DNA of 64,000 bases, taken from positions 39,879 to 103,878 of the IMG/VR virus record IMGVR_UViG_3300023179_000044; one strand, 5' to 3'. The notes beneath the pieces are model-generated. The model saw nothing but the letters and a program-made list of their open reading frames with translations. It was not told the origin of the DNA and did not search any database. This DNA is from a virus. Positions 33,812 through 55,050 of this stretch are shown piece by piece. The translations under genes were made by a program, and so were the position numbers. Position 1 is the first letter of the stretch. Each line of letters opens with the position of its first letter.

Positions 33812-35176
33812 CTACTTTATATCTCCTTCAGAGGCTCCAGTAATTCCAATACTTGACTCTACCACAGGGAGCGCTTTCTTGACAAGTGCTTCATAGAACA
33901 TAGACAAAGGAAACTCATCATCCAGAACGCAGTCAGTCAATTCTCCAGTTGTCCCCTCGAGCAGAGGTAGGTCGCGCGCGAGCCACCGTGATGCAGGATG
34001 AGGAGTTAAAGTACTTGACACTAGTTCATAGGCTGCCAGCCAATGAGCCAGCTTTGGTCTGTCTATAGACTTCCAATAAAGCTCATTGATTTCGTCTGAC
34101 AATTGCAAGACTACAGTAGGCAATCTATTCCAATTGATAAACAAAGAAGTGTCAGTCCAGTCTAGAACTCTATGCTGATGCAAGTAGGCAAAGAGCAACT
34201 GGCCAGCAACTGAATCATAGTTACGCTTCCTAGTTCCTGACAGAGGAAACCTAAAAATTCTGTCAAAAATGATTGCATACTGCACTAGCTCAGCATGCTT
34301 TTTTGCGTCGACTACCGTGTAAGGGTTGGAGCTAAGTTTTACACATTCTCTGAATGCAGTAAGGTCACACCTAAGTTCTTCTATTCCATACAGAAAGAAA
34401 GGCATGCGTTGCTTAATCATGAATGGGTCGAAGGGCAAGTCACCTCTCATGTGGGCTCGATCATGAATCAAGTCCCACATCACATAGGTCTTCTCAGTCA
34501 GCTCTTGGTCAGCAAGTAACTCAGCCAGGCCAGCAGGAATATCCAGATTGGTTATCTTGGCGACCTCTCTAACAACTCTTCTAAACCTGGCAGCTTCTCT
34601 GTCTGCAAAGATTCCTCCCCAGGTAAACTTAGGCAGCTCACCAGCTCGCTTAACTATTGACACAGACTCAGGGAAAAGTACAGCAGAGTTGGTCAAGTAG
34701 CCAGATGTGAAGTCGACAAACCTTATTGGAACAAACCCAGGATTTGAGTACTCCATATCTTCTAGATTGAAAATAAACTCTGGCCAAATGACCTCAAACA
34801 AAACAGCCTCGACCAATCTGTCAGTCGAACCATTTTGTGTATACATTGGAAACACAACAACATGAGCCAGCCCATCTACTCTTGCTCGCTCTGGATGAAA
34901 AGCTTCTAATGAATTGTAAAAGTCTGGCATTGCAAACTTACCATCAGCCCACTTCTCGAAGTCATCAGCACATGCCAGCAGATACTCTGAGTCATGTGGA
35001 AGAAAGCCTGAAATCTTTCGAAGCGACATCGAAATAGTTGAAGCAGCAAGCGCACACAAGCCGTGTACTGCTGTATCAGGTATAGATCCATTTGTAACTT
35101 GATACCCTCTAAGTGTAGAGGCAGCAGATTTAATTGCAGACCATTCAGGGGATAAGGCTATGTCTTTTGCTAGCAT
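33812..35176 (-). CDS. DUF6421-like protein (actinobacterial), putative metalloenzyme
   Basis: VVFPMYTQNG, SAVLFPE, WGGIF.DREAARF, WDLIHDRAHMRGDLPFDPFMIKQRMP..EELRCDL. Family recognised from memory. Confidence 0.7.
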   Translation of the reverse strand: MLAKDIALSPEWSAIKSAASTLRGYQVTNGSIPDTAVHGLCALAASTISMSLRKISGFLPHDSEYLLACADDFEKWADGKFAMPDFYNSLEAFHPERARVDGLAHVVVFPMYTQNGSTDRLVEAVLFEVIWPEFIFNLEDMEYSNPGFVPIRFVDFTSGYLTNSAVLFPESVSIVKRAGELPKFTWGGIFADREAARFRRVVREVAKITNLDIPAGLAELLADQELTEKTYVMWDLIHDRAHMRGDLPFDPFMIKQRMPFFLYGIEELRCDLTAFRECVKLSSNPYTVVDAKKHAELVQYAIIFDRIFRFPLSGTRKRNYDSVAGQLLFAYLHQHRVLDWTDTSLFINWNRLPTVVLQLSDEINELYWKSIDRPKLAHWLAAYELVSSTLTPHPASRWLARDLPLLEGTTGELTDCVLDDEFPLSMFYEALVKKALPVVESSIGITGASEGDIK

Positions 35177-35664: not shown

Positions 35665-35815
35665 CGAGCTACCCGTGTTACTAGGGCTATCGAATAGAAC
35701 TAGTAGTTAATACCTACTCAGGTGAAAAAATGAAAAATCATACTAGGCAGTTTTCATTTGGGCTGGCAACAAAAAACCCCCGATTTCTCGGGGGCTTTTG
35801 TCTAGGGGGACTTGA

Positions 35816-36214
35816 CTAATCTTCTTCGTCTTCGTCTTCGTCTTCGTCTTCGTCTTCACATTCACCCTCGCAACCCTCTACGCCACAAATGTAGCAAACT
35901 TCGTATTCAGTAGCACCTTGCTCAATAAGGCTCGTGTAGCCAGCGTTAGGGTCTTCGTGATTAGTCTCTACTGCCTGAATGAATTTTAGAGAGCAAGACT
36001 TCGCAAACCACTCTTTTAGTATGGAGAGCATTTCACTAGGGGTCTTCTCTTCGCAAGTGAAGAAACTATCTGGCTCTTCACCATAACCATAACCTTTTAC
36101 TTCGGCGACTTGCTCTTCGTCCATAAGAACATAGATTTTGTGGCAAGTGTCCCAAGTAATCGCCTTAGCGTCGTCTAGGGCGTATTCTACTTCGTCCCAG
36201 TCTATAACTGCCAT
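35816..36214 (-). CDS. Acidic hypothetical protein with Cys cluster and (ED)n tail
   Basis: Own promoter, GATAGG RBS and terminator; (TCTTCG)n at 35820-35857. Confidence 0.75.
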   Translation of the reverse strand: MAVIDWDEVEYALDDAKAITWDTCHKIYVLMDEEQVAEVKGYGYGEEPDSFFTCEEKTPSEMLSILKEWFAKSCSLKFIQAVETNHEDPNAGYTSLIEQGATEYEVCYICGVEGCEGECEDEDEDEDEDEED

Positions 36215-36407
36215 TTCGGTTTTCCTATCTGTTTAGTAACCCTTGTTGGCTACATACTTACTATAACCCTTACTGCCGACATTTGTTCCAACTTCTAATC
36301 AAAAATTAGTAGTTACTGGAAAAAATGAAAAATGTTATTTAGGCTTTTATTTTTTCTGGGCAAAAAATAACCCCCGATTTCTCGGGGGCTATCTGTGAAG
36401 TTTTTGA

Positions 36408-36761
36408 TTACAGGGTTTTTAGGTAATCGTAAAGGGTTTCCCTAATCGTAGCAAAATACGCTTCTGGATAGGCTTCCTTCATCATCTCTCGGTCAAAATG
36501 AGTGTTACGACCATTGACCTTCTTGACGACTACCACGCCACCGATAGTGCCTTCTACGAAGTCACCTAAGATTTCTCTTAGGGCTAGTTCAGCAAGTTCC
36601 TTCTGCTCTTTTGCTAGTGCTTCTGCTTTCTTAGCGTTCCTAAACTGGTTTAGGATTTCTTGGGCTTCTGGGGATAGTTCTAGTGATACTGACTTTGTTG
36701 CCTTTGTTGCCTTTTTTGCTGGGGCTGACTTTTCAGCCTTCTCTATTTTTTCTTTTGGCAT
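36408..36761 (-). CDS. Hypothetical protein, paralog of 41035-41376
   Basis: Near-identical C-terminus KKVNGRNTHFDRE.MKEAYPEAYFATIRETLYDYLKTL. Confidence 0.8.
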   Translation of the reverse strand: MPKEKIEKAEKSAPAKKATKATKSVSLELSPEAQEILNQFRNAKKAEALAKEQKELAELALREILGDFVEGTIGGVVVVKKVNGRNTHFDREMMKEAYPEAYFATIRETLYDYLKTL

Positions 36762-36935
36762 TTTTTTCCTTTGTTAGTTTTTCGGCTGGTTGCCGTGTTA
36801 CTAGGCTACGATACACCACCGACATAGAGCAACACTAATAGCAGTTTTTTTGTATCTACTGGAAAAAATGAAAAATGTTATTTAGAGTTGCTGGCTAAAA
36901 ACTTGGGGCTAAGTCTATTGACCTAGCCCCAGATT

Positions 36936-37115
36936 TTATCTAAAACTTTTTATTAGTTTGTAGATGGCAGTTAGGGGTCTGCTCTTACGCCTATGACGAC
37001 CACCTGACTTATCTAGCATTTTGTAAGACCAGTTTTGAGTTTTATACGAAACTTTGAAAGATAGTCCGTGTATTGCTCTTAGCAACTTGTATGCCAAATA
37101 GTATGCCAGTTTCAT
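36936..37115 (-). CDS. Small basic hypothetical protein
   Basis: ATGA-coupled to 37112-37366; start revised. Confidence 0.5.
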   Translation of the reverse strand: MKLAYYLAYKLLRAIHGLSFKVSYKTQNWSYKMLDKSGGRHRRKSRPLTAIYKLIKSFR

Positions 37116-37366
37116 TTGACCGATACCTTTTCCCACTGGTCTTTGTTATCAACTAACTCTTTTACATCTAGCGAGATTTGATACCACGCTTGGAATAGCA
37201 TTAGACCATAAACATCTAGGGTTAGACCAGTTGAGCCATTGTAGAGATAACCCTTTGGCAGTTCCAGCGTTGCTAGACCATCACTATAAAAAATAGTTAT
37301 GCCATTATCTTTTGCTAGGTTTATAGTCTTTACTATGTCCCCAGTTCCAAATGTTTTCTTAGCCAT
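37112..37366 (-). CDS. Hypothetical protein
   Basis: GATAGG RBS and promoter upstream. Confidence 0.65.
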   Translation of the reverse strand: MAKKTFGTGDIVKTINLAKDNGITIFYSDGLATLELPKGYLYNGSTGLTLDVYGLMLFQAWYQISLDVKELVDNKDQWEKVSVK

Positions 37367-37551
37367 TTGAGTTTGTTCCTATCTTTTAGGGGGTCTGCTG
37401 GTTGCTGACCCGTGTTATCACTCTACACCTAAATAGAAAAACACCACTACTTTTACTTAGTTTTTTAGAACTACTGGAAAAAATGAAAAATAGTTCTGGC
37501 ACTCATCTAATCAAAAAATACCCCGTCAAACTGACGGGGCATTTTTGCGAC

Positions 37552-37782
37552 CTAACTATTCAGGCTATTCATTAGGTCAAACATTATCCAGCAAGGCTCA
37601 CACTTGACGGACTTACTGGCTTGACTTGGACTAGGGGGATTAGATTTGAGATTACGACCACAAAGAGAGATTACAGGCTCTAAGGGCTTACCAGTTTCAT
37701 CTAAGGCTACAAGATGTCTAATGGACTTAGGGGGTCTAGTTCCAGTTGTATCTGGCGAGATGTCTGTTAGGGCTTGGCTCAC
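37552..37782 (-). CDS. Small Cys/His hypothetical protein
   Basis: H...LCG...CEPC pattern; GTGA-coupled. Confidence 0.55.
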   Translation of the reverse strand: MSQALTDISPDTTGTRPPKSIRHLVALDETGKPLEPVISLCGRNLKSNPPSPSQASKSVKCEPCWIMFDLMNSLNS

Positions 37783-38009
37783 TTGGCTTCACACTCCCAG
37801 CAAGCAGGGGAGTAATCACTATAAAGTGATACCCCGTGTTCGCAGTAATCGGTTTTACGCTTGCGTTCCAGAACTTCGGACATCTGGTCTATCATAGCCA
37901 GCAAGCGTTCAGGGTTGCCACCCAGAGAGAGTTGGCGTTGGGCTTCTTGGATAGCATAGCCCAGAGTTTCGGCAGAGTAGTTAGCGTAGGGGTTGCTAGG
38001 TGTAGTCAT
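37779..38009 (-). CDS. Small hypothetical protein with C-terminal CEH...CWEC
   Basis: Tiled in the unit; start revised to follow the 38011 stop. Confidence 0.6.
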   Translation of the reverse strand: MTTPSNPYANYSAETLGYAIQEAQRQLSLGGNPERLLAMIDQMSEVLERKRKTDYCEHGVSLYSDYSPACWECEAK

Positions 38010-38010
38010 C

Positions 38011-38154
38011 TTAGTTGTCGCTTTCATCTAGGGTCATTTCGACTTCGGTTAGGTGGCACTCTCGGCATAACTGGGAGTTGCTATCGGGGGCTAGGGTTGG
38101 GAACACTTTACCAGCGATAAAGTTTCCACAGTCGGCACAAATTGGGGTGGTCAT
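38011..38154 (-). CDS. 47-aa zinc-finger-like protein (not in the ORF track)
   Basis: MTTPICADCG...LCRECH with GATAGG RBS directly after a PafBC-type promoter. Confidence 0.6.
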   Translation of the reverse strand: MTTPICADCGNFIAGKVFPTLAPDSNSQLCRECHLTEVEMTLDESDN

Positions 38155-38306
38155 TGAGTTCCTATCTATCGGGGGGCTTGCTCGTTGCTTGCCCGTGTTG
38201 CCAGCCTAGCAAATACCACCGACATCATCTACACTTCTCACCAACTTTTCACCAAAGAGTTCCTGGTACTGGAAAAAATGAAAAATCTTATTTGGAAATT
38301 CTAAGT

Positions 38307-38655
38307 AAAAAAACTTCCCCTAGTATCCGCAGGGATTTCTAACTAGGGGAAGTTTCGGGCTATCGCTTGGAGATAGGATTTGGGCAAGGTATAACAAGCG
38401 ATAACCCTAGTGAGTTTGTAAGACCTGCCCTTACTCTTAGGGGGCGACCCTAAGCGACCTAATCAGTATGCCTACTGACTTGACTAACTCTCCCGACCTT
38501 GTAGATGTCTGCTCTGTGTATTTGTGGAAACCGACTAACCCGACCTTATAGATGTCTGCTCTGTGTTTCCTGATTCGGCGAACTCTTCCTAGTCAACTGA
38601 TTCGCCCTGACTCGCTAGTTTCCAACAATACTTACCTAGGAAGTAAGTGGACAAC
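38307..38655 (-). ncRNA. Putative ~350-nt structured non-coding RNA occupying its own unit
   Basis: Own box (38718), promoter TTGCGT-N16-TATTCT (38662-38689) and terminator; no credible ORF; at least 6 hairpins and a 28-nt direct repeat. Confidence 0.7.
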
Positions 38656-38803
38656 AAGATAAGAATACAGGTTTTTATGATTTACGCAACTTTTCACGAA
38701 AGTTTTTTGTATTCACTGGAAAAAATGAAAAATCTTATCTAAGCGATTTTTTGGCTAAAAAAATAAGTCCCCGATTTTCAGGGGACTTACTTTTTAGATT
38801 TGT

Positions 38804-39151
38804 CTAGGAGACACCGATTACTGACTTTATCCGTGTTATCTGGTTTTCGGTTAGGCTCTTGGTTTCGCCATTGTCGTCTGTTCCACCTGTAATAACTGCG
38901 TCTCCGACAATAATGTCTGTTTTGCCATAAGACATTTCCCAGAGTTTCGTTGCTAGAAAGTTGAAAGGCAGTCCAGTTAGTTTACCTTCCTCATTTATCC
39001 AGAGAGTTAGTCCAGCGAGTTCTTGGTCTAAATCTACTGCTTCTATCCAACCTGCTACTGCTTTACTTAGGAAATCATACTCCTTAGAGTTCTCTACCTG
39101 CTCGGTAGAAACTCCACCATCAGCCTTGATAACTAATACTTGCTTAGTCAT
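38804..39151 (-). CDS. DUF3846-like protein
   Basis: V.GWIEAV...W.NEEGKL.GLP.N..AT...IVGD.V.TG. Confidence 0.8.
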   Translation of the reverse strand: MTKQVLVIKADGGVSTEQVENSKEYDFLSKAVAGWIEAVDLDQELAGLTLWINEEGKLTGLPFNFLATKLWEMSYGKTDIIVGDAVITGGTDDNGETKSLTENQITRIKSVIGVS

Positions 39152-39359
39152 TTTGACCTGCCTATCTGTTTTGGTAGCCCGTGTTGACTACATAAGTAAT
39201 CTACTACTATCAACCGACATTTGTTCCAACTTCTAACTAAGTTTTGTATCTACTGGAAAAAATGAAAAATCTTATTTAGACATTTTGCTTCTAGTTCATC
39301 TGGGCAAAAAATAAACCCCTAGATTTTTGGTCTAGGGGTCTATTTATTTTTGAGTTGAT

Positions 39360-39473
39360 TTAGAGCCTGTCCCTGCTCTGCTTGCTCTGCTTGATGTCCC
39401 TGCTAATGCCACCGATAACTGATAACACTGATAGCACTAAATAAACACCAATAAAGGCGTATTGCCACCACAT
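39360..39473 (-). CDS. 37-aa membrane peptide
   Basis: TAATG-coupled; MWWQYAFIGVYLVLSVLSVIGG. Confidence 0.5.
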   Translation of the reverse strand: MWWQYAFIGVYLVLSVLSVIGGISRDIKQSKQSRDRL

Positions 39474-39715
39474 TAGTTCCACTCCCCTAATGCTCTTAGC
39501 ATTTCGTTAGGTGAAACTTTTAGGGCAACGCATAACTTAGCAAGTGTATCTGCTGGAAGTTGGCGTTGCTTGTGGAAGTATCTGCTAAGGCTGGACTTTT
39601 GTAGTCCTGTTGCGATAGCAAACTGATTTAGCGACTTATAGCCACGCTTAGAATACTGGGCGACAAACCACTCCCAAGTAATCTCACTCTGGCTCTTGAC
39701 TTTTGCTTTTGGCAT
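39473..39715 (-). CDS. XRE-family HTH regulator
   Basis: SLNQFAIATGLQKSSLSRYF..QR.L....L.KLC.AL.VSP. Confidence 0.8.
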   Translation of the reverse strand: MPKAKVKSQSEITWEWFVAQYSKRGYKSLNQFAIATGLQKSSLSRYFHKQRQLPADTLAKLCVALKVSPNEMLRALGEWN

Positions 39716-39913
39716 CTATCTCTCCTATTTTTGAGTTGGTCTATTTGACCTACTAACCACATTACACCAGTTTCCCGAAAAGCAACACCCGTGTTATGAG
39801 TTTTTGTATCTACTGGAAAAAATGAAAAATCTTATTTAGGATTTCAGTTGTTAGTTTGTTTGGGATAAAAATAACCCCCTAGATTTAGGGGGCTACTTTT
39901 TTAGGGGGGGGGT

Positions 39914-40228
39914 CTATCTGGACAATAGGGCGATAAATCGTCTAATGGTCTTTTTATCCGTGTTTTGTTCTAGGTATCTCAACACGCTATCAACTGGCAG
40001 ATTTCGGGCTATTCTGCCGACTAATACTGATGTGGTTTGGCTAATGTATGGTGTGTGGAAATACATAATCTCACTGGTTCGGGTGTTGTAGTCTAAGATT
40101 TTGGTTTTCCAGTGTGTTATCTGGTAGATGTCCCCTAACTGCTCGGCAGTTATGGTTTGGTTGTAGTTTGTAAAGGGGGCAAGGTTTTTGATTTGTTCCC
40201 CGATTTCGTGGTTTGGTAGGCGTTTCAT
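39914..40228 (-). CDS. Hypothetical protein
   Basis: ATGA-coupled; Y....SQTTS motif. Confidence 0.65.
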   Translation of the reverse strand: MKRLPNHEIGEQIKNLAPFTNYNQTITAEQLGDIYQITHWKTKILDYNTRTSEIMYFHTPYISQTTSVLVGRIARNLPVDSVLRYLEQNTDKKTIRRFIALLSR

Positions 40229-40398
40229 TGGGACATCTCCACTAATACAATAGCGTTACGAAGTTCGGCTATACGGGCTTTGACTAGGGTAATCTGTTTT
40301 TTCTCGGTTAGCGTTTCTAGTTCAGCAATTAGTACTTGCTCACGCTTTTTCAGATGGGCTAATGGGTTGATAACCATTGGCAGTTTATTTTCTGTCAT
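40225..40398 (-). CDS. Small coiled-coil hypothetical protein
   Basis: Start revised to lie downstream of the promoter at 40443-40464. Confidence 0.55.
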   Translation of the reverse strand: MTENKLPMVINPLAHLKKREQVLIAELETLTEKKQITLVKARIAELRNAIVLVEMSQ

Positions 40399-40623
40399 TT
40401 CAGTTTCTCTATCTCTAAGGGTAGCCGTGTTGCTACTCATCAACTATAACCCTAACAACTGACAAAAGTTCTGACTATCTGACAACTACTGGAAAAAATG
40501 AAAAATGTAATCATAGGTTTCTGGCTTCTGGGCTGGTTTGGATTTGATTTGGATAAAGAAACCCCCCCTGAAACCCAACTTGGACAGGGGGGGTTTTTGA
40601 GTGTGGCAGACACTCGGCTGGAT

Positions 40624-40836
40624 TTACTTGACTTTGACCCAACGGCAAGTCGTAGCGAGCAAGTTATCGTAATCGCCACTTGTGGCTTCTACTCTATACT
40701 GCTCAATAAGTTCTGGCGACACCTTAGCGTCTTTCATTGCTCGCATTACACGAGCAAGAATAGCAAAGGCATTTCCATCTTCACCGACTAACTTGACGGC
40801 TTTGACTTCTGGCAACTTTACAGACATCTCTAACAC
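40624..40836 (-). CDS. Hypothetical phage protein (LVGEDGNAFAIL...SGDYDNLL)
   Basis: Motif familiar from small phage/MGE proteins; own unit. Confidence 0.75.
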   Translation of the reverse strand: MLEMSVKLPEVKAVKLVGEDGNAFAILARVMRAMKDAKVSPELIEQYRVEATSGDYDNLLATTCRWVKVK

Positions 40837-41034
40837 CCCACTTCCCTATCTCTAAGGTAGCCCCGTGTGGCTACATAAGTAATCTACACTTTCCCACCGA
40901 CATACCCCAACACTTTTCACCAAGATTTAGTATCTACTGGAAAAAATGAAAAATGTGTATCTCTAATCTTGCGATTTTCTGCTAAAAAAATAAACTCCCC
41001 TAGATTTAGGGAAGTTTATTTTTTTTGGTCGGTG

Positions 41035-41376
41035 TTAGAGAGTTTTCAGGTAGTCGTATAGAGTTTCCCGAATAGTTGCGAAGTAGGCTTCTGGATAAGC
41101 CTCTTTCATTAGTTCTCGGTCAAAGTGGGTGTTTCTGCCATTGACTTTTTTCAGGACTACGACACCATTGATGGTGGCTTCTAGGCACTCTCCTAGCAAC
41201 TCACGCAGGGCGAGTTCTGCTTGCTCTTTGTCTGCTTTGGCTTGGGCTTCGGCTTTTTTGGCATTACGGAAACTGGTTAGCAACGCCATACCCTCTGGCG
41301 AGAGTTCTAGCGAGTTGGATTTCTTGGCAGTTTTTTTAGTGGTCTGCTTTACACTTTCAGTTTTAGTTTTTGGCAC
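41035..41376 (-). CDS. Hypothetical protein, paralog of 36408-36761
   Basis: Shared sequence; promoter TTGTAA-N17-TACACT upstream. Confidence 0.8.
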   Translation of the reverse strand: MPKTKTESVKQTTKKTAKKSNSLELSPEGMALLTSFRNAKKAEAQAKADKEQAELALRELLGECLEATINGVVVLKKVNGRNTHFDRELMKEAYPEAYFATIRETLYDYLKTL

Positions 41377-41493
41377 TTTTTATCCTTTGTTAGTTTCGGG
41401 GTTATTCCCGTGTTATCAGTGTAGCCTAATAATCAAGATTTTACAAATAAACTCCCTAAGATTTTTAGGGAGTTTATTTGACTACTTGATTTT

Positions 41494-41652
41494 TTAGTAA
41501 TCGCTCTCGTCTGTAAAGTCGGCAGACATAGCCAACTCGCCTCTGGCGTTCATCTCGCTTTGAGAAACAACCTCATCTTTATCGCAGATGTGCTCTTGGC
41601 TCGCAGGGTAAGAAACCCAACCCTCGCAGGTCTCGCAGTATTCGTGTATCAT
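41494..41652 (-). CDS. 52-aa acidic Cys/His protein (not in the ORF track)
   Basis: MIHEYCETCEGW...HIC; GATAGG RBS; terminator follows. Confidence 0.55.
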   Translation of the reverse strand: MIHEYCETCEGWVSYPASQEHICDKDEVVSQSEMNARGELAMSADFTDESDY

Positions 41653-41850
41653 TTTTCACCTCTTTCCTATCGTGTTCCCAAACTAGCACTAAAACGGATC
41701 TCCATAAAGAAAAAAACTAGCAAGTTGCTAATCACTGGAAAAAATGAAAAATGTTATTTAGGATTTCCTAGTTTAGTTCTGGGCTAGATAAAGCAAAGGG
41801 CTAGACTACAAAAGTAATCTAGCCCTAAGTTCGCTAGGAGATAGGGGAAA

Positions 41851-42334
41851 CTAGCGAAACCTTCTCGGTGTTCGTAATCTACGATAAACCGAGTATTGAC
41901 CTATTACATAACCAGCGACCAGACAGGCAACAGCAAGCGTGATAACTGCTATCAACTCAATAAGATTAGACATCACTTCCCCCTTTCGCTAATCGCCAAT
42001 ACCAAAGCACCAAAGATTAGGATTAGAGCCAGAGAGCCACCTATAACTAAACTTTCCGTGTTCATAAAATAAAACCCTGTTATTAGAGAGTAGCACCCTA
42101 ACGCCATTAGTAAATACTTCATTACTTATCTTTTCCTATCTTTACAGCGTCTAAGGCAAACCAAATAGATACCACTACACCAAGAACCAGACCATTAGAC
42201 CAAACTTCATCTATGGTGTGAGCCTGACCAGCACCATTGGCAACCAGTAAAGCGTAAGTGATAACCCAAGCACCAGCAACTAGGGGAGTGATTAGCAACC
42301 CTGCCAATGCTCTAAAAAATACATACTTATTCAT
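41851..42334 (-). CDS. Three coupled small membrane-protein genes (42122-42334, 41973-42122, 41851-41973)
   Basis: Hydrophobic ORFs with stop/start overlaps. Confidence 0.6.
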
Positions 42335-42526
42335 TTCAGTTCCTATCTATCAAGTAGCCTGTGTTGGCTACATAAATAATTTATACCCAAATAGCAAAAA
42401 ACTCAACAAGCAACAAAAAAATAACTATCTACTGGAAAAAATGAAAAATGTAATCTAGGGTTCGGTGTTTTCTGGGCTGGACAAAAAAATACCCTGCCAC
42501 TTGGACAGGGTATTTTTAGTTTTTAT

Positions 42527-42919
42527 TTAGTAGCAATAAAGGCAGGTTGAGCCATAACAGGCGTGTTCATCAGCGTATCGTTCAGGGCAGATTTCTCTGG
42601 CTTGTTCGTGTATTTGGATAGATAACTTTTCTAGCAACCTTTTTACCTGCCACATAGATTTTAGGATTTCATCTATCGTGTTTTGGGTCTGCTCTGGCAT
42701 CTCAACTAACAGGGCAGGTTCGCCATTGGTATCAAGCGTTAGGGGCAAGTTCAGCAACTCATCTCTATACTTCTCGACCTTGCGAATTATGGTGTCTATT
42801 TCGCTGGTGTCTTGGCTGGTGTCGTAAAGAATAGCACCATAGGGGCTTTCTAGGATTTCCACCTGCTCTGCTAGTTTTTCTAGGGCGATAGCGTTGCTCT
42901 CTGCTAGGTTCTCTTTCAC
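42527..42919 (-). CDS. Hypothetical protein with C-terminal Cys cluster
   Basis: GATAGG RBS; terminator follows. Confidence 0.6.
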   Translation of the reverse strand: MKENLAESNAIALEKLAEQVEILESPYGAILYDTSQDTSEIDTIIRKVEKYRDELLNLPLTLDTNGEPALLVEMPEQTQNTIDEILKSMWQVKRLLEKLSIQIHEQAREICPERYADEHACYGSTCLYCY

Positions 42920-42927
42920 TGGGTTTC

Positions 42928-43128
42928 CTATCTCTCGGTGTTCTCGGTGTTCTTGCTTTCAGCAAGGATTTCTTGGGTTCTAGCCAAAATAACTTTTATC
43001 TGCTCTGGCGTTAGGTGAGCAAAAATAAAGCCATAAGCGTATGGATAAACTACTTCATCGCTTTTACCTGCTAACCTAAGGTTTTCTATGACCTGAATAA
43101 TCGGGTCAATGGTGGTCTGGTCTGCCAT
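42928..43128 (-). CDS. Hypothetical protein
   Basis: GATAGG RBS before the revised ATG at 43128. Confidence 0.6.
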   Translation of the reverse strand: MADQTTIDPIIQVIENLRLAGKSDEVVYPYAYGFIFAHLTPEQIKVILARTQEILAESKNTENTER

Positions 43129-43320
43129 AATCGGTGTCCTATCTGTCGGGGGCTTTTCCATAAAACAACTATAACCCTAACCACTGACGAAGCTTCACTA
43201 CTTTTTATCAAAAAAAAATAGATACTGGAAAAAATGAAAAATGTTATTACTGCTTTTTTTCTTGGACAAAAAATAAACCCCCCTAAGTTCAGGGGGGAGT
43301 ATCTTGATAACTAGGCTAGA

Positions 43321-43734
43321 TTAGTCATCTAAGGCTATTTCAGCGACCTCTAAGGTAAAGGTTGCCCAATACTCATCATGGCTAGACCTAACTACCTCTA
43401 ACACGCTGTAATCATCATTAGAGTAAAAGCGAAGTGTGAAGTCGCTATCTAGGCTAAGGTCGCTAATCAAGTTTTCAGGGTTGCTAATTTTATAGCCAGA
43501 GCGTCTATCCCAATTTAGGTTTTTAGCGTTGATTAGAATTGGAGTTTTCAGTTCATAAGAATTGGCAGTCATCCACTTTTCCAGCAAGTCAAACTTGATG
43601 TTATCTAAGTCATCTTGCCAGCAACCATAGCAGTCTTCACTAGGTTTTGATGTTTTAGTTTCTTCATCATAATCCTCACAAGAGCAAGTGTCGCTAAGTG
43701 TATAGCGAAGCGTTAGTTCAGTTTTAGTTCCCAT
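43321..43734 (-). CDS. Acidic hypothetical protein (CSC...CYGCW...SSHD)
   Basis: Own unit with AGGAG RBS. Confidence 0.7.
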   Translation of the reverse strand: MGTKTELTLRYTLSDTCSCEDYDEETKTSKPSEDCYGCWQDDLDNIKFDLLEKWMTANSYELKTPILINAKNLNWDRRSGYKISNPENLISDLSLDSDFTLRFYSNDDYSVLEVVRSSHDEYWATFTLEVAEIALDD

Positions 43735-43979
43735 AATAATCTCCTAAGTAAGTTTTGGCAGTTGCCATAAATAGAGGCTAGCAAACTTTATAAAAATAAC
43801 TCGCAACTTGGATAACTTTTTGATAACTTTTTTTCTTTATTTATTATCTAGTGGAAAAAATGAAAAATAGTTAGTAAGGTTTTTGTTCCCTTTTAGCAAC
43901 TTATCAAAATAAGATGTATTCTGCTCTAAGTCCCCCCTAAATAATCTAATAATGGAAAAAATGAAAAATAATCTAGCAA

Positions 43980-44490
43980 CTTTTATAGATTTTTACAGGT
44001 TTTTACAGGTTTTTACAGGTTTTTACAGATTTTTACAAATTTTTTATTATTTTTTACTTTTATTTTTTGATTTTTACAGATTTTTACAGATTTTTACAGA
44101 TTTTAGCGTTTTTTGGCTTTTTAGGCGTTTTAGGGCTTTTAGCGTTTTTCAGGCGTTTCGGGGTTTTAGGCGTTTTAGGGCTTCTATGGGCTTTTAGAGC
44201 GTTTCCAGCCAGAAACGGCTGTTAGACGGGTTTGGCTATCCGTCAAGGCTTCTAGGCTCTATCGGGTCTAAGGTCTATCCGTCAAGTGTAGGCAGGGGGC
44301 TTATAGGCGAGCCGTCATTTAGCGAGCCGTTGAGTTCAGGGGGCTTATAGGCGAGCCGTCAAACTGCTAGCCGTTGGCTTTTAGGGCTTATAGGCGAGCC
44401 GTTGATTTGCTAGCCGTCATTTAGGCAAGCCGTCAAATGCTAGCCGTTGGCTCGCCTAGCCGTGTTGATTAGGCGAGCCGTTAGGCTTGC
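43980..44490 (+). repeat. Non-coding tandem-repeat block, candidate origin or bent-DNA site
   Basis: ~10-bp TTTTTACAG(G/A) units 43981-44101; TTTTAG(G/C) units 44101-44197; GGCGAGCCGT / GCTAGCCGT / GGGCTTATAGGCGAGCCGT units 44295-44482. Confidence 0.85.
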
Positions 44491-44494
44491 TGGT

Positions 44495-44842
44495 TTAGGC
44501 TTGCCGTTCAGTTTCTATACTAAACTCCGTGTATTCCACGCCGTCAATGGTATAAACACCCGTATCAGCATCAACCGACACGCTTGGAACATTTATCCAC
44601 TCTGTTCCCGTTAGGCTACCCGTTTCTATCCCGAAAGATAACTCGCCATTATAGTTTCCAAGCCTGACGGCGAACTCGTAAAAGATTTGAGCAGCCAAGT
44701 AAGACGGGTCGCCAATACGCCCCGTGTTCTCTAAAACATTTCTTACTGCTGTTAGGTTGTCCGTGCCTGACCAATGCCCGTAAAAAACTACGGGTTCAGG
44801 AAAACGCTGGCTGGTGATTTCTATAAATGCTCTGTCGCCCAT
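44495..44842 (-). CDS. Hypothetical phage protein (MGDRA...Y.HW.G)
   Basis: 115-aa ORF with a familiar N-terminal motif. Confidence 0.7.
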   Translation of the reverse strand: MGDRAFIEITSQRFPEPVVFYGHWSGTDNLTAVRNVLENTGRIGDPSYLAAQIFYEFAVRLGNYNGELSFGIETGSLTGTEWINVPSVSVDADTGVYTIDGVEYTEFSIETERQA

Positions 44843-44844
44843 TT

Positions 44845-45309
44845 TTATTTGTTCTCGCTTTCTTTGATTTTGTTGAGTTGGTTTATCGTATCACGCAAGA
44901 TGTTCATAGCCCTACCATTTGTAATAGGTGCGTGTTCATTTTCTAGTGTTGCTAAATGGTTCTCCAAATCAGCGATAACTGATTTTAGTGTTGGAACTAA
45001 TAGCGTTGGTGTTAGTGTTTCCATTTCTGATTTCTCGCTTTCTGTTTCAGGGTTGATAAATGTTTCCAAGTGGCATAACTCTACCATTTTGGAAACAGAT
45101 AGGATTTTTGAGCCACCAAAAGTAATCCCTTTTGGCAACTCTATTTCACTATCCCAGTAGCCGAAGTTTGCTAACTCTATTGCCTGTAAGCAAGGCTCTC
45201 TTAGGTCTATTGGAAGTGGTGGATAGTGGTTGCCTAGTAAGTGCCAAGTTATTCTTTTATCTAGGGCTATCTCGGTGTTGCTAACTATGTTCTCGCTTAG
45301 TTTGCTCAT
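44845..45309 (-). CDS. Hypothetical protein (WHL..NHYPP motif)
   Basis: GAAAGG RBS; promoter TTGATT-N17-TAGACT. Confidence 0.7.
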   Translation of the reverse strand: MSKLSENIVSNTEIALDKRITWHLLGNHYPPLPIDLREPCLQAIELANFGYWDSEIELPKGITFGGSKILSVSKMVELCHLETFINPETESEKSEMETLTPTLLVPTLKSVIADLENHLATLENEHAPITNGRAMNILRDTINQLNKIKESENK

Positions 45310-45481
45310 TTGTTTCCTTTCAGTTAGGTAATGAAAGTCTAGTGATTTTTTTTACCCAAATCAAGTTATTTTCGGTGTGTTATCAAAAAGTTAGTTTTAC
45401 TGGAAAAAATGAAAAATCTAGTAAAAAGTTTCCAACTAAAAAAATCCCCCTATGCGAAACAATAAACATAGGGGGAAGTTT

Positions 45482-46193
45482 TTATTTTCTATCTTTACAG
45501 CCTACACAAACCCAGATAGCGTGTTCATAGTTAGGGTCAAGGTCAAGTCCAGAAGTATCTACAAAGTAAAGTGGTTCGCTGGCTAATCCAGTTCCACACA
45601 TTTCACAGGTGAAAACATTTTCGCCTTTACAGCAACTACATTTATCAAGTTTTTTGTTCGTGTCCATTAGTCCCACCCCATACAACCACAATAATAATCG
45701 TCAGTTGGCTCGTCAGGCGTGTATCTAAAAAACGCTAAGTCAGGGCTACTTGGTTTTGGATTATGAGCCCTATTAGTTTTTTCACTTCCACAGGTAGCCA
45801 TACGACCTGCTAACTGCTCTGGTGTTGGTTTTGCTGGTGTTAGTTCATTTTTATTTTCCATTTAGTTTCTCCTTAGTCTTGCTCAAACTCTACTAAATAA
45901 ACTTCGGGAATAACAGCGTCTAATCCTGTTGAGAACATACTTTCTAAACTATCGTATCCACCTAGTTCATCATAAAGAAACTCTTGGAAATCATCTGTGT
46001 ATTTGGTATCTACAACTAGCCAAGATAAATCGTTATACTCGTTTTCCCTGCTCATTTGTAGCCATTGTTCAGTTCCACGCCATAAGAACCAAACAAATCT
46101 ATCGGTGTAATCACCCTGAACCTTGACTAACTTTACATCAGGTATCCAGCCATTTAGTTCGTCAGCGTAGAAATCGTGTTTTACTTTTTCCAT
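45482..46193 (-). CDS. Three small genes: 45873-46193 (acidic), 45667-45861 (YYCGC), 45482-45667 (CxxC-rich)
   Basis: Tiled ORFs with RBS or TAATG coupling; starts revised. Confidence 0.6.
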
Positions 46194-46365
46194 TGGTGTT
46201 CCTTTCCAAGTTTGTTGATACAGATACACTAACACAGCCCACAGACATTTTTCTATTTTTATTTATTATCTAGTGGAAAAAATGAAAAATGTATTTCAGG
46301 TCTGGCTCATAAAAAGTTTGAGCAGTTTAGACACTTGCTCAGGTGTTTTCCTTTTCAGGAGTGGT

Positions 46366-46881
46366 CTAGCAGATAGAGAACCCACCAGAGTTCTCTAAAA
46401 ACTCTGCGAACTCTTTTAGGTCGTCAAGTTCCAGCGAGTAGTTAGTGTCCCAACTCTCTTTCTTGCCCTCGCCATTACAGCCATTACACCAGCCAGTTTC
46501 TCTGCCTAACATAATCGCCTGTTCAGGTGATAACTTGTGTTCTGGCATTTGGTTCTGGACACCTACTTCATCACTTCTAATACCAGTTCCAGCACATAGG
46601 TCGCAGTTTTCTAGTGGCAGACTAGCCAGATAAGCGTTTCTTTGCTCTATGTATTCACTAGCCTTGCCAGTTGCTAAATCGTCTTTGATACGCTTGGCGA
46701 GTTCCTTAGCACCTGTTTCGTCTAGTCCATCGCCATCGTTGTAATGCCCAGAAACATTAGCAACTAGGTCATTATAGTTATCCACGCAGAACTCCCAGAG
46801 TGGTCGCCAGCCCCAGACACTTCGCCTGAAATAAGCCCCTACTTCATTAGCAGGGTTTTTACCAAATACATCCATACCCAT
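46366..46881 (-). CDS. Hypothetical protein with DnaJ-type CxxCxGxG zinc motifs
   Basis: YFRRSVWGWRPLW; CDLCAGTG and CNGCNGEG; promoter TTGCGT-N18-TAGATT. Confidence 0.75.
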   Translation of the reverse strand: MGMDVFGKNPANEVGAYFRRSVWGWRPLWEFCVDNYNDLVANVSGHYNDGDGLDETGAKELAKRIKDDLATGKASEYIEQRNAYLASLPLENCDLCAGTGIRSDEVGVQNQMPEHKLSPEQAIMLGRETGWCNGCNGEGKKESWDTNYSLELDDLKEFAEFLENSGGFSIC

Positions 46882-47084
46882 TTTTCGTTTTCCTTTCGCT
46901 AGGGTTATTTATTTGATAACTGAAATCTACCAAACAAACTTCCAAAAACGCAACTTATTTCATAACTTTTTGATAAACATTTTTCTTGCTTTGGTTATTA
47001 GTGGAAAAAATGAAAAATCTTTTCTTGACATTTTTGGGGAAAAAGTTAGTTTTCCCTTATGGGAAAAACTAACGATTAGAAATA

Positions 47085-47282
47085 CTATTCAGTTTTAGTT
47101 TCAGGTTCATCATCACCAAAATCCACCAAGTCATAGGCGAGTATCTGGCGACCTACCTTGTCGTAGATGACTTCATAAATCTCTCCGTCATCTCCATTTG
47201 CTTCGGCTTCCGTCTTTGCTTCCAAGAGCAAGGCAAGCAGTAGGTTTGCTTCTGCTTCTGTTAGGCGTTTAGGGTCTTTCAT
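47085..47282 (-). CDS. Small acidic hypothetical protein
   Basis: ORF ending just before a terminator. Confidence 0.5.
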   Translation of the reverse strand: MKDPKRLTEAEANLLLALLLEAKTEAEANGDDGEIYEVIYDKVGRQILAYDLVDFGDDEPETKTE

Positions 47283-47350
47283 CTGCTATCCGTTAGTTGT
47301 TGGTCTGGTCTAGTCTGGTCTAAGGTCTATCCGTCAGGTCTGGGCAACTA

Positions 47351-47641
47351 CTATGCGAGCCGACTTGGTTGGCTGTCCGTCAAAAGTTGCTCGGCTGTAT
47401 CTGGCACTCTAAATCCCATACGCAAGCCGACTATCACTACAAGTTCAGCCGTGTCCATACCAAGACACTTGGCGATTTCATTTAGAACTTCACTACTCGC
47501 TTCTTTTCTACCCTGTTCTAGTTCCCAAAGGTAGTTATGTGAAATCCGTGCCTGTGATTTGTTTATGGTTTCTCGCAGAGTTAGTTGGTTCTTGTATCGG
47601 TGTTCGGAGATAACTTCTCCTAATGCTTGCCTGAATAACAT
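47351..47641 (-). CDS. ClgR-like XRE-family transcription regulator
   Basis: LFRQALGEVI...R....LTLRE....A.IS..YL.ELEQGRKEASSEVL..IA..L resembles actinobacterial ClgR. Confidence 0.75.
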   Translation of the reverse strand: MLFRQALGEVISEHRYKNQLTLRETINKSQARISHNYLWELEQGRKEASSEVLNEIAKCLGMDTAELVVIVGLRMGFRVPDTAEQLLTDSQPSRLA

Positions 47642-47822
47642 TTGTTAGTCCAAGTCCTTTCCGTGTTTTGAGTTGTATTCGTCAATAGCCTTACGAACTT
47701 CCACAGCGTAAGCAGGGTGTCGTGCCATAGACATCAGTAGTTTTTTCTTTTCCGTGCTGGTTAGAAAAATCCAGCGAAAGCGATACCAGAGTGTAATGAG
47801 CGTGTCTTTCATAATCTTTTCC

Positions 47823-48305
47823 TTACCTAATGAATACTACTGCTACTAATCCAAAATACACCAGATAGATAAATGGGGCAAGTCTGCCACCAATAATCTC
47901 TCGCCTACTACGCCACATAACGAGATACACACTTCCTATTACAAATGCCATAGATACAAGTGGCAATACTAGCCAGACCCAAGCGAACTTCCAAGATAGA
48001 GATAGACCCATAACTACAAATAACTTTACATCACCCATACCAATACTTTCCCATTTAGCGTGTATGTAAGTGAACACAGCAAGTAATACCACTCCAAAAA
48101 TAAGTGGCATAACTAATCCCCATAGCCACTCACCAGATACAACTGCGTAAGTAATGGCAGAGCCTAGCCAGAGCCAGATAGTAGGTAGCGTGTATTTGTT
48201 AGGAACTCTATTTTCCATAAAGTCCCAAATCAGTATTGGGATAGCAACTACGCATAAGTAGATAGCAGGAAGCGAAGCGATTATTTGTTGTTGTTGTGTA
48301 TTCAT
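47823..48305 (-). CDS. Prepilin peptidase-like (A24) membrane aspartic protease; leaderless start at 48305
   Basis: WDF...RVPN and GMGDVKL catalytic Asp motifs; multiple TM helices. Confidence 0.8.
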   Translation of the reverse strand: MNTQQQQIIASLPAIYLCVVAIPILIWDFMENRVPNKYTLPTIWLWLGSAITYAVVSGEWLWGLVMPLIFGVVLLAVFTYIHAKWESIGMGDVKLFVVMGLSLSWKFAWVWLVLPLVSMAFVIGSVYLVMWRSRREIIGGRLAPFIYLVYFGLVAVVFIR

Positions 48306-48501
48306 AAATCCCACTATACAAGTTAGGTGCGACATTTTACAAATCTTTTTTGGCGTGTTTTATTATTTAGTGGAAAAAATGAAAAATCTTATGAGCCAAA
48401 AAAACTAAAAAAAAACGCTGGTAGATAAACGAGAAAATCTACCAGCATTTTTTCACTTAGAAAGGAGTGATTATTTATTTATGGGTGTTGCTTGGTTCTG
48501 G

Positions 48502-48873
48502 TTAGAGAACATCAACTCGTAGAGTTGGCTCGCCAGCACCTTTGGCGACCCTGTAAGGTTCTAGCAGAGAGTAAAGTTCAGGATTTTCTCTCTCCAACTT
48601 ATCAAGGTCAAGTTTGGCAGGACTAGGGATAAGTTTGATAGACAATAAACGCTTACCCTTAGCGTCAGTTGCTACCAAATCAGATGTGATAGAGCCAACA
48701 GCGTCAAGAATAGCCTGTCTTGCTTGGTCAGACATTTCCTTTGCTTGCTTACCTAAATCACGACCATTACGCAGGTTTGCTACCTGCTTTTGTATGGCTG
48801 GTTTTAGAACTACTACCTGTGGGGTAGAAGTGCTAATGCTTGTAGTGCTTTGGTTCTTAGTTGCGTTTCCCAT
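48502..48873 (-). CDS. Hypothetical protein, distant relative of the 36408/41035 paralogs
   Basis: Helix, then AILDAVG...LD.DKLERENPELY pattern. Confidence 0.6.
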   Translation of the reverse strand: MGNATKNQSTTSISTSTPQVVVLKPAIQKQVANLRNGRDLGKQAKEMSDQARQAILDAVGSITSDLVATDAKGKRLLSIKLIPSPAKLDLDKLERENPELYSLLEPYRVAKGAGEPTLRVDVL

Positions 48874-48977
48874 TTGGAGTTCCTTTCGTTAGATTACCTT
48901 TGGGTGTATTGCTCTAATAGTAAATCACGATTTCTAAAATCTCGCAAGTTTATTTGATAACTTTTTGATAAACATTT

Positions 48978-49335
48978 TTAGGGAGTTTCTACCTGCTGTG
49001 GCTCGCCACACTCATAACAAGTTATGTAGCCAAGTCCGTCCCCAACAGGTGTTATCTCAAAAGTATCTACTGCTTTTAGTCCACACTCCGAGCAGTTGAT
49101 TTCAGTTTCCAGCGTCAGGGCTGTCTTGCTAGTCCGTTGGTTGCTCATACTCGTCCCAGATGTCTTGTCCGTCAATAAGGCTAAGGTCAGACCCGTTGTC
49201 CCACTTTACACGAATAGTCTTAGACCCCCACGGGTCTATGTATTCACCACGCTTTACTCCAAGCGAGCCGACTTTTAGATTTGTGTAGGGGTCGTCAGTA
49301 TGGACGAGCCGAACTCTGATTATTTGTTCCGTCAT
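48978..49335 (-). CDS. Two small genes: 49129-49335 (DUF4314-like) and 48978-49148 (zinc ribbon)
   Basis: RVRLVH.DDPY..L..G..G....D..G..I.VKWDNGS.L.LI.G.D; CSEC...CYEC. Confidence 0.65.
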
Positions 49336-50135
49336 TAGTTATCCGTTTCTGGTATCGGGTATAAACGAACTCCGTTTTCATCTTTGACTATGATAGTGGA
49401 GAACTCATCTACTACTAAACTATCCACCTGTTTATCTGCTAGTTCCCACGCCTGTTCAGGATTTTCGGCTATGACTTTGTATGTCCGTGTAATCTCAACA
49501 AAGAAATCTTTTACTTTTCTTGGGCAGTCCTCATACCAGTTTTCAGTTTCCTCGTCCCAAGCACAGACACACCCGTCCTCGTTATCTCGTTCCACATAAT
49601 CGGTATGGCAGTTTGGTATCCCCCACTCCTTAGTAAGCACTAACTCGCCATTTTCACCAGAGAACTCAGCCCCCCAGCCCTGTTCTTCTTCACTACAAAA
49701 CTCAAAAGATAGTTCTGGGTGTTGCTCTACCATAGCCACAAATACAGGTTCGGGAATAGACCAAGCAGTAGAGAAGTTCATAACAAGTTTAGAAGTTTTG
49801 TCTTTTTTGTTGATAGTGGTATTACCAGAATAATCGCAAGCGTCCCATTTGGTATCCCAGTTTTCATTGTTCCAGTTATACCAGTTGGTAGGAGTGTCGC
49901 CTTTTCTCTCGCCATTTTCCCAACCATTAGTGCCAAAGTATTCGCCACTCTCAACTGCGTCCTGTGGTGGTGCTACAAAGTTCCAGAACGACAACTCTAC
50001 TTCGGTGCTATAAACTACCTTGCCAGTTTCTTTATCAAAACTATCTGGGTGTGGGGCTGTTGCCTTGTCGTAAAAAGTTTCTACATCTTTGATAGAGCCA
50101 GTAATAGTTATGTTGTTATAGACCCAGTTAGGCAT
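49335..50135 (-). CDS. DUF1281/YubB ferredoxin-like domain protein
   Basis: MPNW..N.I.I.G...WY.W...NW.TKWD...F.TAWS.P...EE. Confidence 0.75.
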   Translation of the reverse strand: MPNWVYNNITITGSIKDVETFYDKATAPHPDSFDKETGKVVYSTEVELSFWNFVAPPQDAVESGEYFGTNGWENGERKGDTPTNWYNWNNENWDTKWDACDYSGNTTINKKDKTSKLVMNFSTAWSIPEPVFVAMVEQHPELSFEFCSEEEQGWGAEFSGENGELVLTKEWGIPNCHTDYVERDNEDGCVCAWDEETENWYEDCPRKVKDFFVEITRTYKVIAENPEQAWELADKQVDSLVVDEFSTIIVKDENGVRLYPIPETDN

Positions 50136-50147
50136 TTCTACTCCTTA

Positions 50148-50465
50148 TCATTGGAAGTTGTCCAGTATCTCTTGGATTTCACTTTCGCTAAGTCCACTCT
50201 CTATTCCACACTTACGGACATTTTCAGCAGTTTCCATTTTTAGCAACTCTAACCTGTCTGCTAGTGGGGTCATACCTATACGCTTGGCTATCTTTGTTGC
50301 TGTGATAACTGCTTTATAGGTGTCTGGGTCAGCGTAGCCAGTTTCAGTAAAACTTTCTACCAAAGCCCCAATGATACTTAGAGATAAAAGAAATAGCCCT
50401 GTTTCATCAGAGTTCTCAATGATTTCATCTAAATCTGGGTGGTCGTTTCCACAATGGTCGCACAT
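50148..50465 (-). CDS. Hypothetical protein; start revised
   Basis: GAAAGGACA RBS before MCDHCG. Confidence 0.65.
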   Translation of the reverse strand: MCDHCGNDHPDLDEIIENSDETGLFLLSLSIIGALVESFTETGYADPDTYKAVITATKIAKRIGMTPLADRLELLKMETAENVRKCGIESGLSESEIQEILDNFQ

Positions 50466-50742
50466 TTGTTTTGTCCTTTCAGTAGTGCGTTGTTTGTTTG
50501 TTGTGTCTAGTAAAGCATAGTTGATTTCTTTTAGCAAGTTATTTCATAAAGATTTTTTGGCGTGTCTGATTTGATAATGGAAAAAATGAAAAATCCTATT
50601 CAGCCATTTTTGGTAAAAGCGAACCCCTGATACCCGAAAGGACAGGGTTTGGTATCAGGGGTTCTAGTCCGTTTGTAGAGAACCTACTAGGAGTTGGGGG
50701 GACAAGGGCTTCGGCTCTATCCACAAACGGAGTTCTTATGTT

Positions 50743-52527: not shown

Positions 52528-52643
52528 TTGTTTTGTCCTTTCGTTTGGCTAGTAAAAGTAAATCATACATTTTTGTTTTCGTCAAGGGGTAGGGAGTGCT
52601 AAGTTTTTTACGCCTAGCACTCCCTATTTAGTAGGACGAACTA

Positions 52644-53651: not shown

Positions 53652-53667
53652 TTTGATTTTGTCCTTT

Positions 53668-54180
53668 CTAAGATAAATAAACATCAACAGGAAAACCTGC
53701 GTCAGTTCTGGCTTTGGTTATTCTACGGATTAGAGCAGACGGAGTTTCGTGTTCTCTTATGTTTGATAGGTCTATGTTGCTTACTTCTACTACAAGTTTT
53801 CCTTGTAGTTTGGAGTAGCCATAAGAACCCTGCCTAACAACAGAAGCAACTACCTTTTCTACAAGGTCAGCAGTTATTTCAGTTGGATTTGCCTTTTCAT
53901 CTTTTGGCAAGTGGTGCTTAGTTTGCCATTGTCGTCTAGGCGACATCTTTCCAACAGCCCTGTATGTAAAGGCTACTGGAACTGCCTTACCCTTTTCATC
54001 TACACCAGCAGGGGTAATAATGATTTGGATAGTTTCTTTATCCCAAATGTGTTCAGGATTTGGCTTGATAAGTTCTAGGTAAAGACCCTTACCTACAACC
54101 TTTGGTGTTGCTGTTCCAGATTTTTCAGCAGTTGCTACTGCTTCTGCTGTTTCTGTATCTAGTGTTCCAAATGTTTCCAT
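53668..54180 (-). CDS. Hypothetical protein
   Basis: 170-aa ORF upstream of the AAA gene; promoter TTGACT-N16-TAAAGT. Confidence 0.65.
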   Translation of the reverse strand: METFGTLDTETAEAVATAEKSGTATPKVVGKGLYLELIKPNPEHIWDKETIQIIITPAGVDEKGKAVPVAFTYRAVGKMSPRRQWQTKHHLPKDEKANPTEITADLVEKVVASVVRQGSYGYSKLQGKLVVEVSNIDLSNIREHETPSALIRRITKARTDAGFPVDVYLS

Positions 54181-54288
54181 TTAGTTCGTCCTAACTTATT
54201 GGTTTATGTTGGACAGGATTATCCAACGAGTTCCACTTTACATCAACTTCTAATAAAGTCAAGTCCTAAGTGAAAAGTTTTTTGTTCG

Positions 54289-54864: not shown

Positions 54865-55050
54865 AGTAGTTCCTTTCGTAATGGATAGACAAAAGGTAGC
54901 ACAACTATTTATTAGACGCAAGTATTTTTTTAGATTTTTTCCAAATCATTATTTTTCATTTTTTCCCCCTAGCGAAAAAATCTTATGTAAGGTGTAAAAA
55001 CTTTTTATTATTCGTTAGTTGTTGGCAGAAGTCCTGCGTCTATTTTACTA

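Follow-up and report, generated by a model that had tools for sequence, protein, structure and literature searches.

The stretch of DNA analysed here, hereafter the window, comprises 64,000 nt and forms the 3' part of a 103,878-nt IMG/VR virus record whose completeness is estimated at 61%. Several studies of the years 2011-2019 have yielded freshwater and lake metagenomes with near-identical DNA, and no isolate phage close to this record was found. Between ~35.7 and 56 kb, the window carries an array of minus-strand genes organized in ~20 short units, each of which is headed by an almost invariant box; 14 copies of this box are found at up to three mismatches, against an expectation of 0, and a looser scan of the genome finds 21. 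The same array, with the same box, occurs in one IMG/VR fragment (L027) and in 12 metagenome contigs (L123-L134), and an exact scan of IMG/VR with an extended box pattern gave no hit. The window also contains a full-length DUF6421 gene (33812-35176; Pfam E = 1.7e-208), possibly a host-derived auxiliary gene, which may serve as a hint to the host. Its product shares 66-70% identity with proteins encoded by Rhodoluna and by other Micrococcales genomes from freshwater, which makes a freshwater actinobacterium the likely host, probably a member of the Microbacteriaceae.

The subject of this study is one unit of the array, whose features are all read on the minus strand and are collected in Table 1. 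The region which follows its box contains, in order, an A-rich/AAGTTG element common to the sister units, the hexamer TTGCGT (38689-38684), a 16-nt spacer and the hexamer TATTCT (38667-38662). The promoter-proximal element aligns with the unit heads of L027 and L123, and by analogy with 13 sister units this region would be the promoter of the unit, with a predicted transcript start at ~38655. The two hexamers match the consensus weakly, at 7 of 12 positions, and a generic sigma-70 scan of both strands between 37400 and 39400 reported no promoter, though neighbouring coding units were included in the interval. In at least four units, the AAGTTG(G) element is located at a fixed distance of ~21-22 nt downstream of the box (38686-38695, 38241-38250, 39222-39232 and 36285-36295), and in some units it is followed by a separate TGTCGG-N10-TANNNT motif; some units of the array may thus carry two overlapping promoter types.

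Table 1. Features of the unit and of its homologue in run X11 (window coordinates; identities and changes refer to the comparison with X11).
Feature	Coordinates	Strand	Remarks
Array box	38716-38738	-	Same box heads units in L027 and L123-L134
Inferred promoter region	38662-38715	-	From the alignment of 14 unit heads
Predicted hairpin H1 (6-8 bp, 3-7-nt loop)	38630-38648	-	Individually at chance level; outside the contig of the relative
Predicted hairpin H3 (6-7 bp, 18-nt loop with UAGGAAG RBS-like motif)	38577-38606	-	Predicted
Repeat copy R1 (5' copy)	38539-38566	-	Enclosed by a 6-bp GGAAAC/GGUUUCC stem
Repeat copy R2 (3' copy)	38492-38519	-	Predicted mostly unpaired; alignment of the relative stops at its 5' edge
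Predicted hairpin H4 (8 bp, GGCA loop)	38461-38480	-	Unchanged in the relative
Predicted hairpin H5 (7 bp, 5-nt loop)	38436-38454	-	Sole change of the relative in the loop, 38443
Predicted hairpin H6 (5-6 bp)	38418-38434	-	Changes of the relative at 38414 and 38417, just outside the stem
Predicted hairpin H7 (13-bp stem, 25-nt loop)	38357-38407	-	z -6.1; stem unchanged in the relative
Intrinsic terminator	38309-38355	-	Perfect 14-bp stem 38311-38324/38342-38355, then T-run
X11 RNA body (164 nt)	38356-38519		6 listed substitutions, 2 single-base indels; 94-96% identity
X11 terminator stem			Compensatory change 38321 T>C/38345 A>G; matched deletions 38314, 38352
X11 terminator loop			Shortened by ~11 nt
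X11 spacer, terminator to next box (17 nt)			6 substitutions, 2 indels; ~65% identity
X11 neighbouring 82-aa gene (same run)			30/291 substitutions; 90% identity

Between the predicted start and the terminator lies a body of ~300 nt in which the longest minus-strand ORFs have 25, 22 and 21 codons and the longest plus-strand ORF 36 codons. The array of this phage and those of 14 relatives were cut into 135 box-to-box units, and 133 of these contain an ORF of 61 codons or more. The two exceptions are the present unit and a 102-nt double box (43867-43968), the sole other box-to-box interval devoid of an ORF; the other 133 full-length units all hold such an ORF, so the contrast with the sole full-length unit that lacks one is clean. 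Stop-codon reassignment was considered, as freeing one stop opens TTG-initiated ORFs of 45-64 codons in the unit, and was rejected because the other surveyed units, except the double box, hold their ORFs of at least 61 codons in the standard code. The longest stop-free frame, of 51 codons, has no ATG, GTG or TTG and gave 0 hits in a phmmer search of 1.84 billion proteins, and tblastn, run with every frame piece on 1.7 Mb of related loci, found no credible match to the genes of the relatives, so that neither search detects the residual protein similarity of a decayed gene. No family for the unit emerged from protein and DNA searches: Rfam 15 gives 0 hits in the window at the gathering threshold and none inside 38309-38700 at E values up to 10, ARAGORN finds 0 tRNA or tmRNA genes in the window, and blastn of the unit against 50,697 phage records returns no match.

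A unit with the usual box, a promoter-like region and a terminator but no gene most likely specifies a non-coding RNA of ~345 nt. The traits by which small RNA genes are generally recognized, namely an own promoter, no ORF and an intrinsic terminator, are present, the promoter by analogy and transcription by inference. The initial annotation, made from the letters alone, had proposed that the unit encodes a novel RNA of ~350 nt instead of a protein, and this reading is probable on the evidence of the box, the terminator and the lack of a credible ORF; its description of the set of signals as complete holds for the box and the terminator, which are present in the sequence, whereas the promoter is an analogy with a 7/12 consensus match that a generic scan misses. 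Two of the outcomes that were named as fatal to it, a match to a known family and a decayed gene, did not materialize in the searches made, in which no frame bore a trace of a protein, and the unit looks constrained rather than decayed.

The same annotation called the RNA structured, which is only partly justified. All six of the stems that it listed exist, and the full transcript folds on the minus strand with a z score of -4.3 (plus strand, -2.2); the former value is due to the terminator and the 13-bp H7 hairpin together. Without the terminator, the 300-nt body has an MFE no better than that of shuffled sequences (z -0.7), and its five short perfect local hairpins, against 1.4 in shuffles (P ~0.01), are an ordinary density for this genome, as 20% of the 300-nt windows in the 64 kb contain at least five. 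The body z score and this density are the reasons why the term applies only in part. What stands clearly above chance is limited to the H7 hairpin and the 28-nt duplicate. The word UAGG occurs six times in the unit against 1.3 expected, an excess that is not significant after correction for 256 words.

The 28-nt duplicate was correctly described from the outset, as two copies which differ by one transition (27/28 identity). The similarity extends to 33 nt at 91%, with a spacing of 47 nt between the copies, which leaves a gap of 19 nt (14 nt for a 33-nt repeat); 47 not being a multiple of 3, the copies lie in different reading frames. The edges of the repeat are sharp, with 3 mismatches in 33 positions inside against 11 in the remaining 14 positions of the 47-nt period (P = 6e-6), a pattern more suggestive of a motif that is being maintained than of a tandem duplication that drifts. 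The 28-mer has no stable internal hairpin. No further copy was found at up to seven mismatches in 1.76 Mb made up of the rest of the phage, its relatives, chance hits of the box pattern and candidate-host DNA, and the candidate host family, represented by 301 genomes, contained none at up to three mismatches. Exact searches gave 0 hits as well, with the 26-nt core in IMG/VR and with a 22-mer in the genomes of 185,579 species. An unsampled host might still carry a matching repeat.

The hairpin H7, adjacent to the terminator, exposes in the 3' part of its loop (38370-38378) a perfect 9-nt complement of the (G)AGAUAGGAA-type RBS consensus found upstream of start codons. The type of RBS switches within the array (35800-55000), from (G)AGAUAGGAA at ~35.8-43 kb to GAAAGGA at ~44-53 kb. 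A near-identical loop-plus-arm module forms the hairpin which precedes the terminator of a coding unit at 41830-41858. On the coding strand of the array and of its relatives, 17 of 39 CCTATC words fall in hairpin loops, which make up 13.6% of the bases; these 17 correspond to ~7 distinct hairpins because several relatives share homologous copies, and the RBS word itself shows no loop bias (12/119). In the orthologous 3' hairpins of the relatives, the loop motif is kept and the stems differ. Hairpins with a CCUAUC loop, the complement of the GAUAGG-type RBS, are seen just before the terminators of several coding units (41830-41858; L123:2862-2960; L126:975-1010 and 7406-7500; L133:865-900; L027:2198-2225), and local alignment of the present unit with units of the relatives that bear such a loop hairpin gave no match beyond the box and the promoter head. 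The anti-RBS loop of H7 is a general 3' module of this phage group. The anti-SD arm put forward at the start is therefore real as an RBS-complementary loop and is not special to this unit, and since ordinary coding units possess the same loop, the loop alone does not explain a dedicated unit devoid of an ORF.

The alignment of contigs from four runs to 37700-39300 revealed one homologue of the unit, a divergent and partial one which covers its 3' half; the collection of homologues proposed as a check yielded none in the fetched loci. This homologue is a 325-nt contig from run X11, which belongs to a different study; its alignment to 38229-38519 shows 22 substitutions and 20 gap letters. In addition to the body substitutions listed in Table 1, up to four more near the contig ends are unlisted, for a maximum of 10. 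The body is better conserved than the spacer (P = 2e-4); with respect to the neighbouring gene, P ranges from 0.011 with 6 substitutions to 0.17 with 10, so that, given the four unlisted substitutions, the latter contrast may not be significant. All eight of the listed body changes lie in predicted loops or linkers and 0 in the 68 stem positions (P = 0.014), three of them in the 5' part of the H7 loop. As for covariation, this single partial homologue has a compensatory change in the terminator stem and none in any stem of the body. The only 25-codon ORF is put out of frame by the loss of one nucleotide at 38393. Beyond 38519, which is the exact edge of R2, a further 45 bases of the contig are unaligned, and the 5' half of the unit, including R1, may therefore not be conserved. 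Taken together, the changes in this one short contig are suggestive of a unit that ends in a functional terminator and whose 3' half is constrained as a nucleic acid. In the same run, 153 nt at 37994-38148, with a 47-aa CxxC gene (38011-38154), are replaced by 11 unrelated bases, and the 82-aa gene beside it is kept.

The distribution of the unit is that of an accessory cassette: 14 related arrays lack it, and the divergent relative just described is the one in which it was seen. In two relatives besides the 12 metagenome contigs, the neighbouring 82-aa gene is present and the RNA absent. Neither blastn nor nhmmer detected a homologue in 180 retrieved loci (the arrays of the relatives included), whole-record searches of two related virus records found no such unit, and neither the H7 arm with its loop nor the H4 and H5/H6 stretches had an exact match in IMG/VR. 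In all 12 metagenome relatives, the DUF3846 unit (38804-39151) is directly followed by the homologue of the unit at 36408-36761, an adjacency which identifies the RNA unit and the next two as extra cassettes. The three consecutive units missing from these 12 relatives span 36875-38732 and consist of the RNA unit, a unit with genes for 47, 82 and 76 aa and a unit with a gene for 84 aa. Cassette turnover in the array evidently proceeds by whole units, with the boxes as their boundaries. For the group, the RNA unit is dispensable, since 14 related arrays do without it.

Among known systems, the closest in kind are trans-acting small RNAs of phages such as lambda LPR1/PreS (bioRxiv 10.1101/2024.10.31.621285), part of the phage-encoded small RNAs for which an overview exists (Bloch et al. 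2021, Plasmid 113:102527). The unit resembles them as a stand-alone non-coding gene with its own promoter and terminator whose product presumably acts on host or phage expression; it differs from them in its length of ~345 nt, several times the typical one, and it has no sequence or Rfam relation to them. No target was identified in the phage or in five candidate-host genomes: the rest of the phage genome offers only 10-12-mers of chance size as targets or extra copies, and the complementarities in the host genomes are chance hits, the best of which spans 30 nt at 83% inside a coding region. Hfq-type chaperoning is not expected in actinobacteria, to which the probable host belongs. CsrB and RsmZ are protein-titrating RNAs, which the unit recalls by its multiple hairpins and recurrent RBS-like motifs, with a possible competition with mRNAs for a factor; it has, however, no sequence relation to them, its UAGG enrichment does not survive the 256-word correction, and CsrA is not known in Actinomycetota. 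We regard the unit as a probable new phage ncRNA, of a known kind but assigned to no known family.

Several other readings of the same facts have to be weighed, and the main ones, each of which we judge rather unlikely, are a base-pairing anti-RBS regulator and a functionless remnant. As a riboregulator, the RNA would use the CU-rich loop of H7 to pair with GAUAGGA-type RBSs of early phage or host mRNAs and thereby shut down their translation, the rest of the molecule being a scaffold. A perfect 9-nt complement held in a 25-nt loop on a 13-bp stem, the unchanged RBS-complementary part of that loop in X11 and the enrichment of the motif in hairpin loops of the phage group speak for it; but the same loop closes ordinary coding units (41830-41858 and in relatives), 9 nt against a generic RBS confer no specificity, and no extended complementarity was found to phage transcripts or to the five candidate-host genomes. 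As a remnant, the unit would be what a lost gene or a recombination scar has left behind, with a working promoter and terminator and an RNA that has no role. This reading, of about the same limited probability, accounts well for the absence from 14 related arrays, hence dispensability, for a global fold that is not significant, for an X11 alignment that stops at the repeat edge and for the cassette turnover around the unit, where two more extra units follow and X11 lacks the 47-aa gene. It is less easily reconciled with a covered half that is conserved at least as well as the neighbouring gene and far above the spacer, with X11 changes that avoid the stems, with the lack of a protein trace in any frame and with a repeat that keeps 27/28 identity while its surroundings differ. 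The unit might also act as DNA, its repeats and dyads being binding sites for a protein at a transcription-activated origin, a partition site or a regulatory site, with transcription through the repeats incidental or activating. Direct repeats of 28-33 bp placed 47 bp apart, many inverted repeats and a promoter reading into the repeats would suit such an element, which we nevertheless find improbable: the repeats number only two and have no further copies elsewhere in the genome, no AT-rich unwinding stretch adjoins them, and the compensatory change in a dedicated terminator speaks for an RNA product.

Least credible of all is a micropeptide of at most 25 aa or an ORF with a non-canonical start. 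The 25-codon TTG ORF (38397-38320) does have a UAGGG motif 7 nt upstream, and there is the stop-free stretch of 51 codons; however, the start and the RBS of the former are buried in the 13-bp stem, its frame runs through the terminator and is shifted in the X11 relative, and the latter has neither a usual start codon nor a homologue. Hardly more probable, and largely refuted, is the suggestion made in the initial annotation of a CRISPR-repeat-like or antitoxin-like mimic, considered here as a Racr, a mini-array or a repeat RNA of the type III antitoxin kind, for which two 28-nt repeats within 165 nt of the predicted start and an early region full of small genes of the anti-defence type could be invoked. 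A Racr (solitary repeat unit) is defined by its similarity in sequence and structure to the CRISPR repeat of the host or of a relative (PMC10651486). The unit shares with Racrs a repeat-bearing small RNA downstream of a phage promoter, the absence of cas genes nearby and a counter-defence-like neighbourhood; the repeats lie ~90-165 nt past the predicted start, within the limit of 250 bp from an upstream promoter that applies to Racrs, the promoter here being a putative one. The defining similarity is missing, however, since the 28-mer matches no CRISPR repeat in the collections searched, neither in IMG/VR nor, as a 22-mer, in the 185,579 species nor in the 301 genomes of the host family, and it lacks a stable internal hairpin. 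CRISPR spacers have a length of ~26 nt or more, and the gap of 14-19 nt is too short for one, which also disposes of the mini-array. ToxI antitoxin RNAs consist of more than two contiguous direct repeats of ~30 nt, followed by a leaky terminator and the toxin gene. The likeness lies in direct repeats of about this size in a non-coding transcript of a mobile element; here, by contrast, two copies are separated by unique sequence instead of standing head to tail, and what comes next is a strong terminator and then a new box-promoter unit which encodes small zinc-ribbon-like proteins, of 47, 82 and 76 aa and with no Pfam match, and not an endoribonuclease toxin.

We therefore return to the reading of the unit as an accessory gene of a freshwater phage that stands alone and specifies a non-coding RNA. 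To this reading we give our preference, with modest confidence; transcription, the start point, action in trans and the existence of a ligand are inferences within it. The model we propose begins with the box-plus-promoter module, which would drive the unit as it does the protein-coding neighbours, and ends with the intrinsic terminator, which would stop the RNA, giving a minus-strand product of ~345 nt from ~38655 to 38309. This product would consist of a string of short hairpins around two largely unpaired copies of the 28-nt motif and would be closed at its 3' end by a very stable hairpin, whose loop would display the 9-nt complement of the GAUAGGA-type RBS and would be the generic anti-RBS module of the group. 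Abundant and early, the RNA would act in trans as a binding platform or decoy, its two motif copies holding two copies, or a dimer, of an RNA-binding factor. We put forward this platform built around the duplicated motif as the favoured, if tentative, mechanism; a protein sponge or defence decoy had already been offered as a possibility in the initial annotation. A more specific version, in which the two single-stranded motifs of an early-expressed decoy titrate a host RNA-binding factor of defence or translation, is distinctly more doubtful than the platform as such and less probable than either of the two main rivals. Among the public runs that contain the phage sequence, no RNA run is listed, and two metatranscriptomes from the study of one phage-containing run hold next to none of its sequence words.

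In conclusion, our observations point to a probable RNA-encoding cassette in an array of protein-coding ones, in a phage that belongs to abundant freshwater populations recurring over the years, the same sequence being present in runs from 2011 to 2019. Phage ncRNAs are under-annotated because gene callers skip them, and Racrs and lambda PreS indicate that counter-defence and takeover may depend on such RNAs. The unit supplies a first RNA candidate for the phages of freshwater Microbacteriaceae, a poorly studied group, and a functional RNA would provide a defined 28-nt motif usable as bait for its partner. Could it be a decoy? If so, it would represent an RNA-based device for counter-defence or takeover that has no relation to CRISPR mimicry and forms a swappable cassette within a box-promoter array of small proteins of the anti-defence type.
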